Origin: Clostridiales bacterium
Lineage (GTDB): Bacteria > Bacillota > Clostridia > Lachnospirales > Lachnospiraceae
Assembly (NCBI GenBank): GCA_021202655.1
Contig: JAJQCO010000231.1
Location: 25-64,024 of the forward strand
Direction of reading: 5' to 3'
DNA: 64,000 nt
This document shows positions 2,812-59,777 of this stretch, in pieces. Each line of letters begins with the position of its first letter. Within the stretch, counting starts at the first letter, position 1. A program made the position numbers and the translations under genes. Below the pieces are notes generated by a model. That model had not been told where the DNA came from and ran no database searches. It worked only from the letters and a program-made list of their open reading frames with translations.

Positions 2812-4485
2812 TTATGAATAGAACAGCCGGTTCACTGCGCTGAATATTCCCCTCACAGACGCCCGGGTAATATTGGAGCTGATTCCCACACCGTAGGTCG
2901 CCCGGCCGGTATCCTGATCCATCAGATGGATATAGGACGCCGCCTGTGCGCCGGAACCGGTGCTGAGCGCGTGTTCGTCGTAATCGAGCACCTTGATCTG
3001 GATGCCAAAAACATCCTCCATCCCGCGCTGTACGGCGTCGATCGGGCCGTTGCCCACGCCCTCGAAGGTCTTCTCGATACCGTGATCCGTGTAGGTAACC
3101 GTCGCGACTGTCGCGAACTCGCCCGGCTCGGTCTCCGTGTCGGTGATCCGCAGCCTGCGGAAATGCATGGGCTCCTTCTTCTCCAGGTAGCATTTGCGGA
3201 ATTCCTGCATAATCTGCTCCGGAGCGACTTCACCCTGCTTCTCGGAAATCTTCTGGATCACATCCGCAAATTCCTTGTGCATGCCCTTCGGCAGACGGAA
3301 GCCATAGAAGGTCTCCATCACGAAAGCTACGCCGCCCTTGCCGGATTGACTGTTGATGCGGACAATCGGCTCGTACACGCGCCCGATATCCGAGGGGTCG
3401 ATCGGAAGATAGGGAACCTCCCAGTGTCCGTCTCCTCTCTCCCGCATGGCCTGCATGCCCTTGTTGATCGCGTCCTGATGCGATCCGGAAAAGGCGGTAA
3501 AGACCAGCTTGCCCGCATACGGGTGACGCTCGTCGATGCCCATCTTTGTACAGCGCTCGTACACCTCCGCGATCTCACGAACATTCTCAATGTTCAGCTC
3601 CGGATCAATTCCCTGAGAGAACATGTTGTACGCCAGGGTAAGGATATCCACGTTGCCTGTGCGCTCCCCGTTGCCAAAAAGGGTTCCCTCGACACGGTCT
3701 GCTCCTGCCAGAAGCGCCAGCTCCGTCGCCGCCACGCCGGTCCCCCGGTCATTGTGCGGATGGACGCTGAGAATGATATTCTCCCTGTTCTTAAAATGCC
3801 GGCTCATCCACTCAATCTGGTCAGCGTAGACGTTCGGCGTCGTCATCTCGACCGTGGACGGCAGATTGAAAATAATCGGCCTGCCCGGCGTCGCATCGCC
3901 CCAGGTATCCTGCACGGCCGTGCAGACCTCGAGCGCGTAATCCAGCTCCGTGCCGGTGAAGCTCTCCGGAGAATACTCCAGCATCAGATCTCCATCGTAA
4001 TCCTTCATATATTTCTTTACCAGATTGGTACCGTCGATGGCGATCTGCTTCACCTCTTCCTTGCTTGCGTGGAATACCACGTCGCGCTGCAGGGTGGAGG
4101 TGGAATTGTAAATGTGGACGACTACCTTCTTGATGCCCTGAATGGATTCAAAGGTGCGCTTGATCAGATGCTCCCGGCACTGGACCAGCACCTGGATTCG
4201 GACGTCGTCCGGAATCATCTTCCGCTCTACCAGCTGTCTGAGGAAATCATACTCGATCTGGGAGGCAGACGGGAAACCGACCTCAATCTCCTTGAAGCCC
4301 AGCTTCACCAGCATGTTGAAAAACTCAACCTTCTCCTCCACGACCATTGGCTCCACCAGAGCCTGGTTGCCATCGCGCAGATCCACGCTGCACCAGACCG
4401 GCGCCTTCGTGATCTCCTTATTTGGCCATTCTCTCTCCGGGTAATCAACCACCGGATTCTTCCTGTATTTCTGATAATTTAACAT
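2812..4485 (-). CDS. leuA: 2-isopropylmalate synthase (long LeuA form)
   Basis: 557 aa with N-terminus MLNYQKYRKNP..WCSVDLRDGNQAL, an HPHNDRGTG metal-binding motif and a C-terminal LeuA dimerisation/regulatory region. AGGAGG lies upstream of the ATG. Confidence 0.93.
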   Translation of the reverse strand: MLNYQKYRKNPVVDYPEREWPNKEITKAPVWCSVDLRDGNQALVEPMVVEEKVEFFNMLVKLGFKEIEVGFPSASQIEYDFLRQLVERKMIPDDVRIQVLVQCREHLIKRTFESIQGIKKVVVHIYNSTSTLQRDVVFHASKEEVKQIAIDGTNLVKKYMKDYDGDLMLEYSPESFTGTELDYALEVCTAVQDTWGDATPGRPIIFNLPSTVEMTTPNVYADQIEWMSRHFKNRENIILSVHPHNDRGTGVAATELALLAGADRVEGTLFGNGERTGNVDILTLAYNMFSQGIDPELNIENVREIAEVYERCTKMGIDERHPYAGKLVFTAFSGSHQDAINKGMQAMRERGDGHWEVPYLPIDPSDIGRVYEPIVRINSQSGKGGVAFVMETFYGFRLPKGMHKEFADVIQKISEKQGEVAPEQIMQEFRKCYLEKKEPMHFRRLRITDTETEPGEFATVATVTYTDHGIEKTFEGVGNGPIDAVQRGMEDVFGIQIKVLDYDEHALSTGSGAQAASYIHLMDQDTGRATYGVGISSNITRASVRGIFSAVNRLFYS

Positions 4486-9375: not shown

Positions 9376-10441
<1,066 letters not shown>

Positions 10442-31090: not shown

Positions 31091-31143
31091 ACTTACCAAA
31101 GCATACGGAAGAAGCTGCTAGTGGCAGGTCCTGTAATTCAGAT

Positions 31144-31944: not shown

Positions 31945-31973
31945 AATTTCAAATCCTGCTTTCACTTAAAATT

Positions 31974-32097
31974 TACTATGAAAGTCCAAGAAGCGGAGCC
32001 GAAGGCGAACGCTGATTGGCAACTTTCATGTATGCATGCGGCGCTTAGCGAAGTCAAGCCATCAGGCGCAGACTGAGCTTAGCATAGTCGTTTACTA
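31974..32097 (+). repeat. structured intergenic repeat, copy 1 (two-hairpin ~125-nt element)
   Basis: Aligns over its whole length with 48898-49022 (reverse complement) and 56578-56698. It contains the ATGAAAGT...ACTTTCAT clamp. It lies between tctA and the aldolase gene. Confidence 0.85.
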
Positions 32098-48613: not shown

Positions 48614-48637
48614 CTCTTCCTCCTGTCTTCTCTGTCT

Positions 48638-48902
48638 AGTATGAAAGTCGATGACTCCGCTCTGCGAGCTACTTTGTATAAGTTCGACTACGGAAATCAC
48701 AGATTTCCTGTCTCACTTATCTCGTCATCGCCGCCAGTATTCGCAATCCGGGCTTCTCCGCTCCGCTTCGGTCGGTGCTAAACGAGCGCCACCGGCGCTC
48801 AGCACCGCCCTACTTGCTCATACCGGCTTGGTTGCCAAATGTCTGTACGTCCTTGCGTGCAAGCACGCAGTCCGTACAGCCGCTTGGCAACACTTTCATA
48901 GT
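48638..48902 (-). repeat. 265-nt hairpin-rich relative of the intergenic repeat, bounded by the same ATGAAAGT/ACTTTCAT clamp
   Basis: Clamp at 48641-48648 / 48892-48899. Internal stems: CGATGAC/GTCATCG (48649-55 / 48724-30), GGAAATC/GATTTCC (48692-98 / 48702-08), GTGCT-GAGCGCC/GGCGCTC-AGCAC (48775-48805), and a long hairpin GTTGCCAA..CTGTACG..TGCGTGC/GCACGCA..CGTACAG..TTGGCAAC (48831-48891). Confidence 0.75.
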
Positions 48903-49022
48903 AAGCGACTATGCTAAGCTCAGTCTGCGCCTGGCGGCTTGACTTCGCTAAGCGCCGCTGCATACATGAAAGCAGCCAATCATTCTGCGCCTAACGGCTT
49001 GAATTCTTGGGCTTTCATAGTA
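48898..49022 (-). repeat. structured intergenic repeat, copy 2
   Basis: Its reverse complement aligns end to end with 31974-32097 and 56578-56698. It starts directly after the T-box terminator U-run. Confidence 0.85.
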
Positions 49023-49381
49023 AAAAATCCCGCCCCGGAATACTGTCACATATTCCGGGACGGGACATATCTCCTCTATGCTTCCCGCGGTACCACCCGC
49101 ATTGAACGCCGCCGCCCGCAACCGGAACTGCAGCCTTCCACTCTTAAGCCGTAACGTGACCTGACGGGTATCCCTACGCAGCCGCCCTGCCGCGCGCCTC
49201 ATGCGGCAGCCTCTCCGGCTCTTTCGAAATACCGGCTCCGGAGTGTTCCCTTCTGCCACGTCCAACCTGACGGCGCTCTCAGTCGGTGACGCCCTCTCCC
49301 TGTCGAAGTCCTGCTGGCAAGAGTCTCCTTCTCAGCCTTTCCCGTGTTCCCAGACATCTGCATGTCGCCGAACACCAGATT
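49022..49381 (-). promoter_or_regulatory. T-box riboswitch leader of the aspS-gatCAB operon
   Basis: The minus strand reads AATGCGGGTGGTACCGCGGGAAG (T-box sequence, 49083-49103). A terminator follows: TCCCGTCCCGGAATA..TATTCCGGGGCGGGA plus TTTTTT (49022-49065). Upstream are AGGGAGAG / TGAGAG Stem-I-like elements and two GGGAACAC motifs. Confidence 0.85.
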
Positions 49382-56508: not shown

Positions 56509-56550
56509 CCAAAACCGCCGCATGAGCCCATCTTCGGACTCATACGGCGG
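56509..56550 (-). terminator. rho-independent terminator of the phosphoglucomutase gene
   Basis: The minus strand reads CCGCCGTATGAG..loop..CTCATGCGGCGG followed by TTTTGG. It lies downstream of repeat copy 3. Confidence 0.8.
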
Positions 56551-56577
56551 AACATTCCATCGTAAACTCCAGGAAAT

Positions 56578-56698
56578 TACAATGGAAGTCCAAGAATCCA
56601 AGCCGTTAGGCGCAGGATGATTGGCAACTTCCATGTATGCAGCGGCGCTTAGCGAGAGCGAGTCGTAAGACGATGCTCGAACTTAGCATAGTCGCTTA
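56578..56698 (+). repeat. structured intergenic repeat, copy 3
   Basis: Aligns with copies 1 and 2. The clamp here is ATGGAAGT...ACTTCCAT. Its last 3 nt (TTA) are the complement of the phosphoglucomutase TAA stop. Confidence 0.85.
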
Positions 56699-58435
56699 TT
56701 TCGTCAGCTCGGTCACAATCGCATCCACTGCCTTGCCAAACGCCGCGGACTTCGCGTCGGCGTCTTCCAGAGAAGCGCCCTTCACTCCATAATAGAACTT
56801 GATCTTCGGCTCTGTTCCGGAAGGTCTTACGCACATCCATGCGTTATCGTTCATATCATAGTAAAGAACATTGGAGGACGGAAGGCCGGTCGGAGTGACC
56901 TCGCCGGTCGCCATATTCTGAATCGTATCCTTCTGATAATCGCGGGCAGACAGAACCTGATAGCCGCCCACCTCTGTCGGCGGATCGTTCCGCAGGGACT
57001 CCATAATCGCCTTGATCTTTGCCAGACCCTCGATGCCTGCCAGACCGATGGACTTGACGGCGTCCTTATAGTAGCCGTACTTATTGTACATATCGATCAT
57101 CGCATCCCACAGAGTCTTGCCCTGGGTCTTGTAGTACGCAGCCGCCTCGCACAGAGCAACCGTCGCGGAAACTGCGTCCTTATCGCGCGCGTAGGTGCCG
57201 ATCAGGCAGCCGTAGCTCTCTTCCATACCGAACATATAATGGCCGACGCCTGTCCTCTCCTCCTTGAGCACCTGCTGTCCGATCCACTTGAATCCGGTCA
57301 GGCACTCCACCAGCTTACAGTCATAGCCCGCCGCAACCGCGTCGATCAGGTTCGTGCTGACGATGGACTTGACCACCTCGCCGTCAGCCGGAATCGCGTT
57401 CTGCGCCTTCTTCTGGCTCAGCACATACTCGCACAGAAGGGAACCGGACATATTGCCGGTCAGAGAAATATACTCGCCGGACTTCGTATCCTTCACATAA
57501 ACGCCCAGGCGGTCTGCATCCGGATCGGTCGCCAGAACCAGATCCGCGTCGATCTCCTTCGCAAGCTTTAAGCCAAGCGCGAATGCCTCCGCCGCCTCCG
57601 GGTTCGGATAGCTGACGGTCGGGAACTCACCGTCCGGCAGCTCCTGCTCACGGACAACATATACATTCTCGAAACCAATGTCATGCAGCGCACGGCGAAC
57701 CAGAATATTACCGGTGCCGTGAAGCGGGGTATAAACAATCTTAATATCCTTCTGCATCGCGTTGATGGCATCCTGGTTCACCACCTGCGCCTCAACCTGC
57801 GCCAGATACTTATCATCCATGTCAGCGCCGATGACCTTGTAAAGGCCAAGAGACTTCGCGTCGGACGCGGTCATGGTCTTCACGGTGGACAGATCCTCAA
57901 TGGCCAGCACTTCCTCTGTCACGCCCTTGTCATGAGGCGGGGTGAACTGTGCGCCGTCCTCCCAGTAAACCTTGTAGCCGTTGTACTCCGGCGGATTGTG
58001 GCTCGCAGTGATGTTGATACCGGCAATGCATCCCAGCTCGCGGACCGCAAAGGACAGCTCCGGCGTCGGGCGCAAAGACTCAAACTTATAAGCCCGGATC
58101 CCATTCGCCGCCAGGGTGCGGGCAGCCTCATCCGCAAACTCCGGAGACATCCGGCGGGAATCAAATGCGATCGCCACGCCCTTATCCGCGCCTCCCTGCT
58201 TGATAATATAATTGGCAAGGCCCTGCGTAGCCCGGCGCACCACATAGATATTCATCCGGTTGATGCCTGCGCCAAGCACTCCGCGAAGACCGGCGGTGCC
58301 AAACTCAAGATCCATATAGAAGCGCTCCTTGATCGCGTTCTCATCCCCTGCGATCGCTCTCAGCTCATCCTTCGTCGCTTCATCGAAATACGGATTGTCA
58401 AGCCACTCCTGATAGATCTTCATATAATCTTTCAT
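56696..58435 (-). CDS. phosphoglucomutase / phosphomannomutase family protein (alpha-PGM type)
   Basis: Phosphoserine loop TASHNPPEYNGYKV, Mg loop DPDADR, ~579 aa. The ATG at 58435 follows AGGAGGGAG. Confidence 0.9.
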   Translation of the reverse strand: MKDYMKIYQEWLDNPYFDEATKDELRAIAGDENAIKERFYMDLEFGTAGLRGVLGAGINRMNIYVVRRATQGLANYIIKQGGADKGVAIAFDSRRMSPEFADEAARTLAANGIRAYKFESLRPTPELSFAVRELGCIAGINITASHNPPEYNGYKVYWEDGAQFTPPHDKGVTEEVLAIEDLSTVKTMTASDAKSLGLYKVIGADMDDKYLAQVEAQVVNQDAINAMQKDIKIVYTPLHGTGNILVRRALHDIGFENVYVVREQELPDGEFPTVSYPNPEAAEAFALGLKLAKEIDADLVLATDPDADRLGVYVKDTKSGEYISLTGNMSGSLLCEYVLSQKKAQNAIPADGEVVKSIVSTNLIDAVAAGYDCKLVECLTGFKWIGQQVLKEERTGVGHYMFGMEESYGCLIGTYARDKDAVSATVALCEAAAYYKTQGKTLWDAMIDMYNKYGYYKDAVKSIGLAGIEGLAKIKAIMESLRNDPPTEVGGYQVLSARDYQKDTIQNMATGEVTPTGLPSSNVLYYDMNDNAWMCVRPSGTEPKIKFYYGVKGASLEDADAKSAAFGKAVDAIVTELTK

Positions 58436-58574: not shown

Positions 58575-59777
58575 TCACAGATTTATTTTTGACAGGAACA
58601 ATTTCCTGGATTTCTGACGGGCTTCAATGGCTTTCAGCTTCTCCACGTTCTTCTCCGGTATCCACGCCTTGTTGGCGCTGTTATAATAATTCAGCTGCTT
58701 CCAGTATTTTTCCGGATATAAGAACAGATAATACAGACATTTTCGCTCCTCCCGGGAAATCGGCCGGACGCGGTCGTAGCGCTCGATCATCGCCAGTCCA
58801 AGCCCTCCGTCCCAATCCTGCCGTTCCAGGCATTTGCGCAGGAAACGGTACAGATCCGTCATCTGAATGCCGCGGTGCATCTGATTGAATTCAATAAAAA
58901 CCGCCTCCGGGCCACGGATCAGAATGTGATGCTGATCCAGATCGCCGTGGCAGAGCGCCTGCGGCAGACAGGCATTTTCTCCCTTTTCTTCGCGCGCCCC
59001 GTCCCTTCCCGTCTCCGCGCCGGTCGACATCCTGATATCCAGCAGATTTCCAACTACAGGACCTGCCACTGGCAGCTCCTTCCGTATGCTATGGCAAACT
59101 ACAGGACCTGCCACCGGCGGCTCCTTGCGTATGCCAGGGCAAAGAAGATGTTCCAGCCCCTCCTGTGCCTGCAGCGCCTCCTCATAATAGGAATCAAAAT
59201 GGGCAATCACACACCGCTCAAAATCGCCCTTCTTTTTCTGATTCCGGATAAAGGTGCGTACCCGCTTCATCTCCCGGGTATGGCGCCGCATCTCGCTCAA
59301 AGGCCCCGGCGGAAGCATGGATCGCAGATCCCACTCGTCCCGCCAGGCAATCTCTCCCATCGCCTGATGCAGCCGGGCAATGTGGGAGACCGCTCCCAGC
59401 ATTTCCCGGCTGTCCCGCAAACTGCATTCCCGGTCGCTGAACCATTCCTTCAATACATATTTCGTCCCATCCTCCGCGACTGTGAGAAGCTCTCCGTCCT
59501 GATTTCTCACATAGCGGTCGGTCAGGGCAATGCCCCGCTCTCCCAGCTCCTCCAGAACAGCCGTCTCAAATTCCAGACGCCGGACTGTTCCCCGATACTC
59601 CTTTAACTGCTTCACGCTGCCGTCAGACCATTGACAGATCCAGGCTCCCCTTCCCTTGCGGATACTGAGGGTCTCTCCCTCATAGTGCTGCAACGCTTCC
59701 AGATAACTGTCGTACACGCCCACCCCTCCACTCTGATGCCTGGTATCACAAAAGCCAGATTCCTCTGACCCCTGCAT
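58575..59777 (-). CDS. CotS-family / aminoglycoside-phosphotransferase-fold kinase-like protein
   Basis: Catalytic-loop-like LCHGDLDQHHILI followed by IEFNQM. This is the CotS-type spore coat protein kinase architecture. It contains an in-frame 45-bp tandem duplication. Confidence 0.7.
   Translation of the reverse strand: MQGSEESGFCDTRHQSGGVGVYDSYLEALQHYEGETLSIRKGRGAWICQWSDGSVKQLKEYRGTVRRLEFETAVLEELGERGIALTDRYVRNQDGELLTVAEDGTKYVLKEWFSDRECSLRDSREMLGAVSHIARLHQAMGEIAWRDEWDLRSMLPPGPLSEMRRHTREMKRVRTFIRNQKKKGDFERCVIAHFDSYYEEALQAQEGLEHLLCPGIRKEPPVAGPVVCHSIRKELPVAGPVVGNLLDIRMSTGAETGRDGAREEKGENACLPQALCHGDLDQHHILIRGPEAVFIEFNQMHRGIQMTDLYRFLRKCLERQDWDGGLGLAMIERYDRVRPISREERKCLYYLFLYPEKYWKQLNYYNSANKAWIPEKNVEKLKAIEARQKSRKLFLSKINL
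59052..59141. repeat. 2 x 45-bp in-frame tandem duplication inside the CotS-like gene
   Basis: 59052-59096 and 59097-59141 differ at only a few positions and encode (minus strand) IRKEPPVAGPVV.. / IRKELPVAGPVV... Confidence 0.85.

Follow-up and report, generated by a model that had tools for sequence, protein, structure and literature searches.

A family of two-hairpin interspersed repeats inserted at TTAC, candidate non-autonomous mobile DNA elements of Lachnospiraceae-like Clostridia

The 64,000-nucleotide stretch of contig JAJQCO010000231.1 (assembly GCA_021202655.1, Clostridiales bacterium) analyzed here, referred to as the window, contains three copies of an element that carries no gene and forms two imperfect hairpins with conserved mismatches. 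As far as Rfam 15 and the literature searched show, the copies belong to a previously undescribed family of structured interspersed repeats. Through insertions, this family has become dispersed in a narrow group of Lachnospiraceae-like Clostridia. We favor the interpretation that the repeat, about 122 nt in length, is a non-autonomous mobile DNA element that is recognized as a folded single strand and is likely similar to PATEs, which are gene-less and mobilized in trans (PMC10055086). The probability that we assign to this interpretation is roughly 0.55.

Structure, covariation, and distribution of the element

The three copies were noticed in an initial annotation of the window, the positions of which were right within 1–4 nt. 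The copies are:

31973–32095, plus strand: copy 1 (covariance model score 140 bits; 5' TTAC at 31973–31976; 3' end GTCGTTTAC)
48901–49023, minus strand: copy 2 (138.9 bits; 5' TTAC at 49023–49020; 3' TTAC at 48904–48901)
56577–56699, plus strand: copy 3 (131.8 bits; 5' TTAC at 56577–56580)

Each copy is 122–123 nt long. Repeat extension gave a unit length of 122 nt from the arms 48902–49023 and 56577–56698, the flanks of which are unrelated. The internal 13–14-mers GCGGCGCTTAGCGA and CTTAGCATAGTCG have exactly three perfect occurrences each in the window. Both hairpins are built according to one plan, composed of a stem, a tandem G-A/G-A, a co-varying 4-bp helix, an RA/GNA internal loop, a GCC/GGC clamp, and a variable loop, and the plan is kept while the sequences of the helices differ between copies. 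The clamp of hairpin 1 is ATGAAAGT/ACTTTCAT in copy 1, ATGAAAGC/GCTTTCAT in copy 2, and ATGGAAGT/ACTTCCAT in copy 3, and the corresponding inner helices are AGCG/CGCT, ATTC/GAAT, and ATCC/GGAT. The tip of hairpin 2 of copy 3 is swapped relative to copies 1 and 2. The clamp, inner-helix, and tip sequences are all as they were first described.

When folded as RNA, the strands given above have free energies of −47.8, −50.8, and −50.3 kcal/mol in copies 1, 2, and 3, with z-scores of −3.9, −4.5, and −5.9, and none of 200 shuffled sequences was as stable. The opposite strands reach −37 to −41 kcal/mol (z = −1.0 to −3.1). Under RNA parameters the strands thus differ clearly in stability, and under DNA parameters they differ little.

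Twelve loci (L001–L012) in eight metagenome-assembled genomes (MAGs) of Clostridia and Lachnospiraceae were identified by scanning one genome per species with the pattern GCGCTTAGCGN{10,40}CTTAGCATAGTC. Several of the carrier MAGs originate from animal gut or rumen samples. Two further copies, divergent or tandem, were detected by the covariance model R1 within the scanned loci. In all, 16 copies in nine genomes from independent assemblies were counted, the window included. A search for further copies had been suggested when the repeat was first noticed; at least 13 are located in the eight other genomes, between unrelated flanks, and recent segmental duplication is therefore ruled out.

Twelve full copies, nine of them from other genomes, were aligned, and the structure of 35 base pairs derived by RNAalifold recovers both hairpins. 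Across the alignment, 96.1% of the cells are paired, compared with 26–37% in a control in which the pairing partner was slid by 1–3 columns. Changes on both sides occur in 15 of the 35 pairs, and the observed covariation score was reached by none of 500 shuffles, which bears out the initial proposal that differences between the copies are compensatory. Between copies, the clamp and both 4-bp helices vary, and the fixed parts are the unpaired G-A/G-A, RA/GNA loops, GCC/GGC tips, and one G-U pair. The aligned copies contain 22 G-U cells compared with 7 A-C cells. There are at least three types of hairpin 1: A (CCAAGA..GATTGG), B, and C. Hairpin 1 is identical in window copy 2 (W2) and L001, the hairpin 2 tips of which are different. 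Judged from the aligned sequences, whole hairpin modules are exchanged between copies.

Rfam contains no family for the element, either in a gathering-threshold scan of the window or in a search with copy 1 at E ≤ 10, in agreement with the initial annotation, which had recognized no named family. In IMG/VR, the hairpin-2 pattern gave two chance matches, both of which were rejected by the model, and the hairpin-1 pattern gave none. Among metagenome contigs, the hairpin-2 pattern had no matches, and the family is therefore rare outside a few assembled genomes.

Several other identities of the element were considered. No terminator-like sites were found inside the copies on either strand, and the reading as an intrinsic terminator was rejected: there is no T-run in any copy, and the terminators located beside copies 2 and 3 are those of the host. 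A coding reading was rejected as well. Copy 1 contains an ATG-started frame of 34 codons, yet a stop follows after 12 codons in copy 2, and the frame is not conserved because indels between the copies shift it. The G-A loops were rejected as K-turns, since the 3-nt bulge is absent. An integron attC site, a dif/Xer site, and a group II intron were rejected on sequence, as the GTTRRRY core, the 11-6-11 site, and GUGYG...AY, respectively, are absent.

Insertion sites, junctions, and arrays

Copy 1 is positioned between the tctA stop codon (32114) and the start of the gene for an HpcH/HpaI aldolase, the gene context reported initially, and is antisense to the tctA-aldolase operon. Copy 3 is located, also in antisense orientation, in the 3' untranslated region of a phosphoglucomutase gene, the terminator of which is at 56550–56515. 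The TAA stop codon of this gene is donated by copy 3 (TTAT, the complement of the 3' end of the copy). Copy 2 is sense to the aspS operon, and its 5' TTAC overlaps the T-run of a T-box terminator. Its surroundings are:

49053–49342, minus strand: T-box leader with a terminator at 49066–49027, belonging to the aspS-gatCAB operon, which encodes a non-discriminating AspRS; the insertion context of copy 2
48640–48900, minus strand: Clostridiales-1-type element, arranged head-to-tail with copy 2 and sharing the 3' TTAC of copy 2

The T-box leader contains GGGTGGTACCGCG. It scores 47 bits compared with the Rfam threshold of 93, and was thus missed at the gathering threshold.

The nearest relatives of the window are the Clostridiales bacterium C.6_2 MAG (AspRS 93%), Candidatus Ventrimonas, and Lachnoclostridium-like Lachnospiraceae. 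At the orthologous sites, a comparison of which had been proposed initially, related genomes lack all three copies present in the window. Locus L013 of the C.6_2 MAG, which also carries the copies L007 and L008, is orthologous to the window, with a 93% identical AspRS and about 85% identical DNA. In BLASTN, the similarity of L013 to the window ends at 49024 and resumes at 48629, and in nine Ventrimonas-like loci (L015–L023) it breaks at 49022–49023 and at 48624. A 394-nt block formed by copy 2 and the Clostridiales-1 element is missing from L013 and L015–L023, which contain 44–89 nt instead, and the break points at the aspS locus are the outer ends of this block. Near copy 3, the similarity of L013 ends at 56696, at the right end of the copy. 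The empty site in L013 reads ..gacgaagTAAag.., and the element strand has TTAC exactly at the junction. No copy was detected by the covariance model R1 in L013–L023.

There is no protein on record identical to the TctA of the window, and its orthologs were found by homology search. The spacer between tctA and the aldolase gene is 49 nt long in L030 (TctA 85%) and 98 nt in L031 (TctA 83%), with the element absent from both, and the spacer of the window measures about 50 nt when copy 1 is removed. In four independent Logan assemblies with an 88% identical tctA ortholog (L026–L029), the contigs end about 30 nt past the tctA stop codon. The contig ends read ..ATATGTAAC TGTTCAGAGCCAAGCAAAAT, and the break is just past GTAA, which is TTAC on the other strand. 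The interruption of all four assemblies at this position suggests that this relative contains another repeat at the site of copy 1. From these sequence comparisons, all three window copies are insertions. The covariation and the insertions together support the initial view that selection acts on a folded single strand, as in a REP-, BOX-, or MITE-like mobile element or a structured RNA.

The left flank of the element is TTAC in all 15 copies compared, and the sequence upstream of TTAC is unrelated. Together with the empty site in L013, the constant left flank would fit an oriented insertion 3' of a fixed motif, and the element itself has TTA(C) as its 3' end. Of the 15 copies, nine finish on the right with ..TAGTCG[C/T]TTAC, and the other six differ from this by one base. 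W2, L005, and L006 are positioned directly after a terminator-type hairpin and a T-run. Units of different types are joined head-to-tail through a single TTAC in L005 (type B, then A), in L007 (35–164), and in the window, where copy 2 is followed by the Clostridiales-1 element. The 3' TTAC of an element could take a further insertion, and the head-to-tail arrays would be explained in this way.

The first 8–38 nt of a further unit follow directly 3' of about eight of the 15 copies. The copy in L003 is truncated at its 5' end and trailed by a 27-nt 5' fragment, and its GGAAGT matches ACTTCC upstream; from its sequence, it looks circularly permuted. In L002 (7826–7996, minus strand), a 47-nt insert, TAAGTGAGACAGGAAATCTCTGATTTCCGTAGTCGAACTTATGCAAA, is placed in the tip of hairpin 1. 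The insert matches the 3' domain of the Clostridiales-1 element of the window (48735–48675), and there is no TTAC at its junction.

A second repeat family with a 45-nt hairpin unit, TGCCATAGCATACGGAAGGAGCTGCCAGTGGCAGGTCCTGTAGTT, is present in the window at 59052–59141 (minus strand) and 31097–31138 (plus strand), and in L013 at 9899–9950. The two tandem units at 59052–59141 are in frame in a YutH/APH-like gene, to the product of which they add two 15-residue repeats, CPGIRKEPPVAGPVV and CHSIRKELPVAGPVV; the L013 ortholog is without them. Another unit is located behind TTTTTTACTTAC on the downstream side of the aldolase gene. The unit in L013 is located just past the T-box terminator, exactly in the place of copy 2 in the window.

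Relationship to Clostridiales-1 RNA

Since 2010, Clostridiales-1 RNA (Rfam RF01699; Weinberg et al. 2010, PMC2864571) has been an orphan motif. RF01699 is the only Rfam match in the window at the gathering threshold (48691–48898, minus strand, 68 bits compared with the threshold of 48), and the match directly abuts copy 2. The sequence 48640–48900 folds with −124.8 kcal/mol (z = −7.6) into three branches closed by UAUGAAAGU/GACUUUCAUA, the same clamp as that of hairpin 1. In the clamp, the 5' segment TATGAAAGT (48900–48892) pairs with GACTTTCATA (48649–48640), and the outer stem of the window Clostridiales-1 element is the TATGAAAG/CTTTCATA clamp that it has in common with the element.

A metagenome scan with the conserved Clostridiales-1 hairpin identified at least 120 loci, mostly from human gut, with 133 matches listed. 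A frame that begins with TTAC, T, ATGAAAG[T/C]C...core...G[A/G]CTTTCATG and continues through a spacer and a short hairpin to ..CCGTTTA was found in nine of the 133 matches listed, and these nine occur in at least four different flanking contexts among the matches listed. Seven human-gut loci score 110–124 bits on RF01699; five of them have the exact frame and two are close variants (L065 and L032). In the 1.08 Mb of DNA compared, the TATGAAAG...CTTTCATG clamp pattern occurs only in mini-elements, the 122-nt units described here, and in Clostridiales-1 elements. The clamp interior measures 25–39 nt in the former and 148–245 nt in the latter.

The element resembles Clostridiales-1 in its frame, as both have TTAC, the TATGAAAG...CTTTCATG clamp, a spacer, and a 3' hairpin. 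Copy 1 has its first 15 nt, TTACTATGAAAGTCC, in common with the Clostridiales-1 element L037, and both types contain short helices split by purine-rich internal loops. However, copy 1 gives no RF01699 match, even at E ≤ 10, and L001–L012 contain no RF01699 match. The outer stem of the element (TATGAAAG/CTTTCAT) closes one hairpin rather than a three-hairpin core, and hairpin 2 is longer and has another sequence. Furthermore, 124 of the 133 matches listed have other outer-stem sequences, and the other-stem members inspected by eye lack the 5' TTAC. Only two of 56 RF01699 loci are antisense to both neighbors, compared with five of the 16 copies of the element. By its frame, the element is classified as a relative of Clostridiales-1 and not as a member of RF01699. 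Because the outer frame is common to both, the mini-element looks like a pared-down relative, with one short G-A-rich hairpin in place of the three-hairpin core.

The genes next to Clostridiales-1 loci are unrelated housekeeping genes, and there is no transposase among them. BLASTN searches of PLSDB plasmids and INPHARED phages gave no match to the element or to the L037-type Clostridiales-1 element, and the element is absent from the human-gut Clostridiales-1 loci. In human-gut Clostridiales-1 loci, sub-hairpins are repeated in tandem with periods of 88–216 nt and up to three units (L075 296–415, L076 11352–11559, L052, L058, L079, L039, and L046), indicating that Clostridiales-1 evolves by duplicating modules. 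Strong promoter sequences directly precede some of the framed elements. An extended −10 sequence, TGGTGTATAAT, is positioned 4 nt ahead of the TATGAAAG start of a TTAC/TATGAAAG-frame element in L066 (minus strand, about 3900–3915), and TTGACA-17-TAAAGT is located about 45 nt upstream of the framed element in L070 (380–460). In L070 and L140, the framed element is ahead of a possible thiamine pyrophosphate (TPP) riboswitch (CTGAGA, by eye) and a thiD-like gene.

At least one Clostridiales-1 subfamily now looks dispersed, flanked by TTAC, and accompanied by a miniature derivative. The dispersed subfamily makes the question of which factor recognizes the fold testable through a search for the partner enzyme in complete genomes.

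Selection of the fold and comparison with known mobile elements

The element may instead, although this is rather doubtful, be a structured RNA module that is functional and a miniature within a Clostridiales-1 RNA superfamily; its fold would then be selected in RNA, for example, as a protein-binding hairpin pair or for the stabilization or processing of mRNA. The copies would in that case reflect recruitment of a useful RNA rather than selfish spread. The tandem G-A pairs, the invariant G-U pair, and the 22 G-U cells compared with 7 A-C cells are consistent with a role in RNA, as is the asymmetry in strand stability, which is large under RNA parameters but becomes small under DNA parameters. 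The agreement with RF01699 in clamp and hairpin plan, the similar tandem duplication of Clostridiales-1 hairpins, and the sense orientation of 11 of the 16 copies relative to their neighbors also fit this explanation. However, the remaining five copies, including copies 1 and 3 and thus two of the three in the window, are antisense to both neighboring genes inside transcription units, with no promoter-like site. The well-folding strand is therefore probably not transcribed there, and at copies 1 and 3, which have no promoter-like site of their own, host transcription reads the strand that folds less well. The five antisense copies weaken a purely RNA-level role in host transcripts. The copies have no consistent gene neighborhood, and the insertions are lineage-specific, being absent from a relative with about 85% identical DNA in the aspS region. 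The invariant TTAC junctions and the head-to-tail insertion are properties of DNA events. We conclude that the fold is selected in the self-copying lineage and not at each resting place.

It is unlikely that the element is a classical MITE (a miniature transposable element with inverted repeats) that a DDE transposase moves in the form of double-stranded DNA, with a 3–4-bp target duplication (TTA or TTAC) and with hairpins that are transcribed inverted repeats. TTA or TTAC is present on both sides of the element, the size of the element is typical of MITEs, and close to the ends a short stretch (CTATGAAAG versus CTTAGCATAG) is similar in inverted orientation. Nevertheless, the ends are not terminal inverted repeats, as the right-hand CTATG is 8 nt inside the end, and each hairpin is a local palindrome rather than a product of end-to-end pairing. 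The pairs co-vary and the mismatches are fixed, which fits recognition of a fold and not of a double-stranded binding site. The presence of TTAC on the left in 15 of 15 copies but on the right in nine of 15 is unexpected for a plain duplication.

Movement via an RNA or circular intermediate, either through a structured or circular RNA that is reverse transcribed or by rolling-circle copying, is very improbable. It could give rise to permuted or longer-than-unit copies, such as the apparently circularly permuted L003, the approximately eight of 15 copies that are trailed by the first 8–38 nt of the unit, and L002, where a Clostridiales-1-like domain is represented inside hairpin 1 by its 3' 47 nt only. 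However, neither a reverse transcriptase nor a Rep gene was seen in the vicinity of the copies, the same patterns can arise when a tandem insertion is followed by a deletion, and a circular single-stranded DNA (ssDNA) intermediate is already part of the IS200/IS605 model. Chance similarity, recent segmental duplication, or an assembly artefact, in favor of which there is only the origin of the window as a single contig of a metagenome assembly, is refuted by the exact unit boundaries with unrelated flanks, the 16 copies in nine genomes from independent assemblies, and the compensated changes between the copies.

Under the interpretation that we favor, the folded single strand of a non-autonomous mobile DNA element would be recognized, through its shape and conserved mismatches, by a factor provided in trans. 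The most likely route would be the "peel-and-paste" of ssDNA by an HUH/Y1 transposase, possibly that of the IS200/IS605 type. Effects on host transcripts, such as the longer aspS leader, the donated stop codon, and the hairpins inside operons, would be by-products.

IS608 inserts as ssDNA 3' of TTAC, is strand-specific, and has subterminal imperfect hairpins (PMC3201880). The element is located 3' of TTAC, which is exactly the IS608 target. Like IS200/IS605 PATEs, it is gene-less, has an imperfect hairpin near each end, the two hairpins being alike, and has a strand-specific fold; its mobilization would have to occur in trans.

A number of observations weigh against this interpretation. The distance from the left TTAC to the foot of hairpin 1 is 0–1 nt in the element compared with 19 nt in IS608, and that from the right TTAC to hairpin 2 is 3 nt compared with 10 nt. 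A common guide tetranucleotide ahead of both hairpins was not found in the element, and the clamp changes (GAAAG, GAAAC, GGAAG) while TTAC is constant. A tblastn search with an approximate IS200 TnpA query gave nothing at E ≤ 1e-3 in 152 sequences (1.08 Mb), in which the hosts are represented by the window and pieces of about 8 kb, and the same query gave only chance-level matches at E ≤ 10 in the window and L001–L012. Neither a TnpA nor a TnpB gene was found in these sequences. No copies with cargo genes were seen in the window and the approximately 8-kb loci. Only 11 of the 16 copies have their folded strand on the G-rich one, with a local GC skew of 0.12–0.24 in size, which is a weak bias. 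The tandem G-A pairs, the invariant G-U pair, and an asymmetry that appears mainly with RNA parameters are RNA-like traits, and some Clostridiales-1 relatives have promoters directly upstream. Truncated 5' fragments trail many copies, and the interpretation does not account for them. Lastly, the junctions would be identical if a DDE transposase had made a 3–4-bp target duplication (TTA or TTAC), because the element itself ends in TTA(C), which makes the two processes indistinguishable.

The five antisense copies also have the folded strand on the C-rich strand. The GC skew of the window itself is strong (0.16 in size), and nearly all of its genes are on the minus strand.

The description of the element adds a well-defined structured interspersed repeat to the poorly studied uncultured Lachnospiraceae of gut and rumen. 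The family can help to explain contig breaks in metagenome assemblies, such as those of the four contigs with an 88% identical tctA ortholog, and the 122-nt unit is a defined feature for annotators of such intergenic DNA. As to the hosts, 394 nt were added between the T-box terminator and aspS, one copy provides the stop codon of the phosphoglucomutase gene, and others put strong hairpins in operons.

Based on the similarities described, we file the element as one that appears to work like a PATE or a REP-type element and not as a demonstrated member of the PATE family, because the spacing, guide tetranucleotide, strand bias, and TnpA fail to match or to show. Furthermore, the right end of the element is the target TTAC, whereas IS608 ends in TCAA. 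REPs are hairpins of 21–65 nt with 5' GT[AG]G at the foot (PMC6006769). They resemble the element as high-copy intergenic hairpins in mosaic arrays of variant units (BIMEs), and their spread is attributed to one domesticated HUH enzyme, RAYT (TnpA-REP). In contrast, the element has no GTAG or GTGG at the foot of either hairpin, is 122 nt long, and contains two hairpins. REPs are mostly proteobacterial and form inverted pairs, whereas the units of the element are arranged head-to-tail.

Another type of modular intergenic repeat in Firmicutes, about 100–200 nt in length, is that of the BOX elements of Streptococcus pneumoniae, with stable RNA folds and variously combined modules. The boxA, boxB, and boxC modules are organized differently from the element and have no sequence similarity to it. 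BOX elements have no known transposase and no described TTAC specificity.

A more speculative comparison, which we consider improbable, is that the frame of TTAC, TATGAAAG...CTTTCATG, and the 3' hairpin could be the chassis of a mobile non-coding RNA gene. Clostridiales-1 and its miniatures would then be RNAs carried by a TTAC-targeting single-strand transposon and acting with a protein encoded elsewhere, for example, as a guide or scaffold for a TnpB-like nuclease. If this were true, the flank 3' of the element would be the guide and TTAC the adjacent motif, in parallel to HEARO, which turned out to be the guide RNA of IscB.

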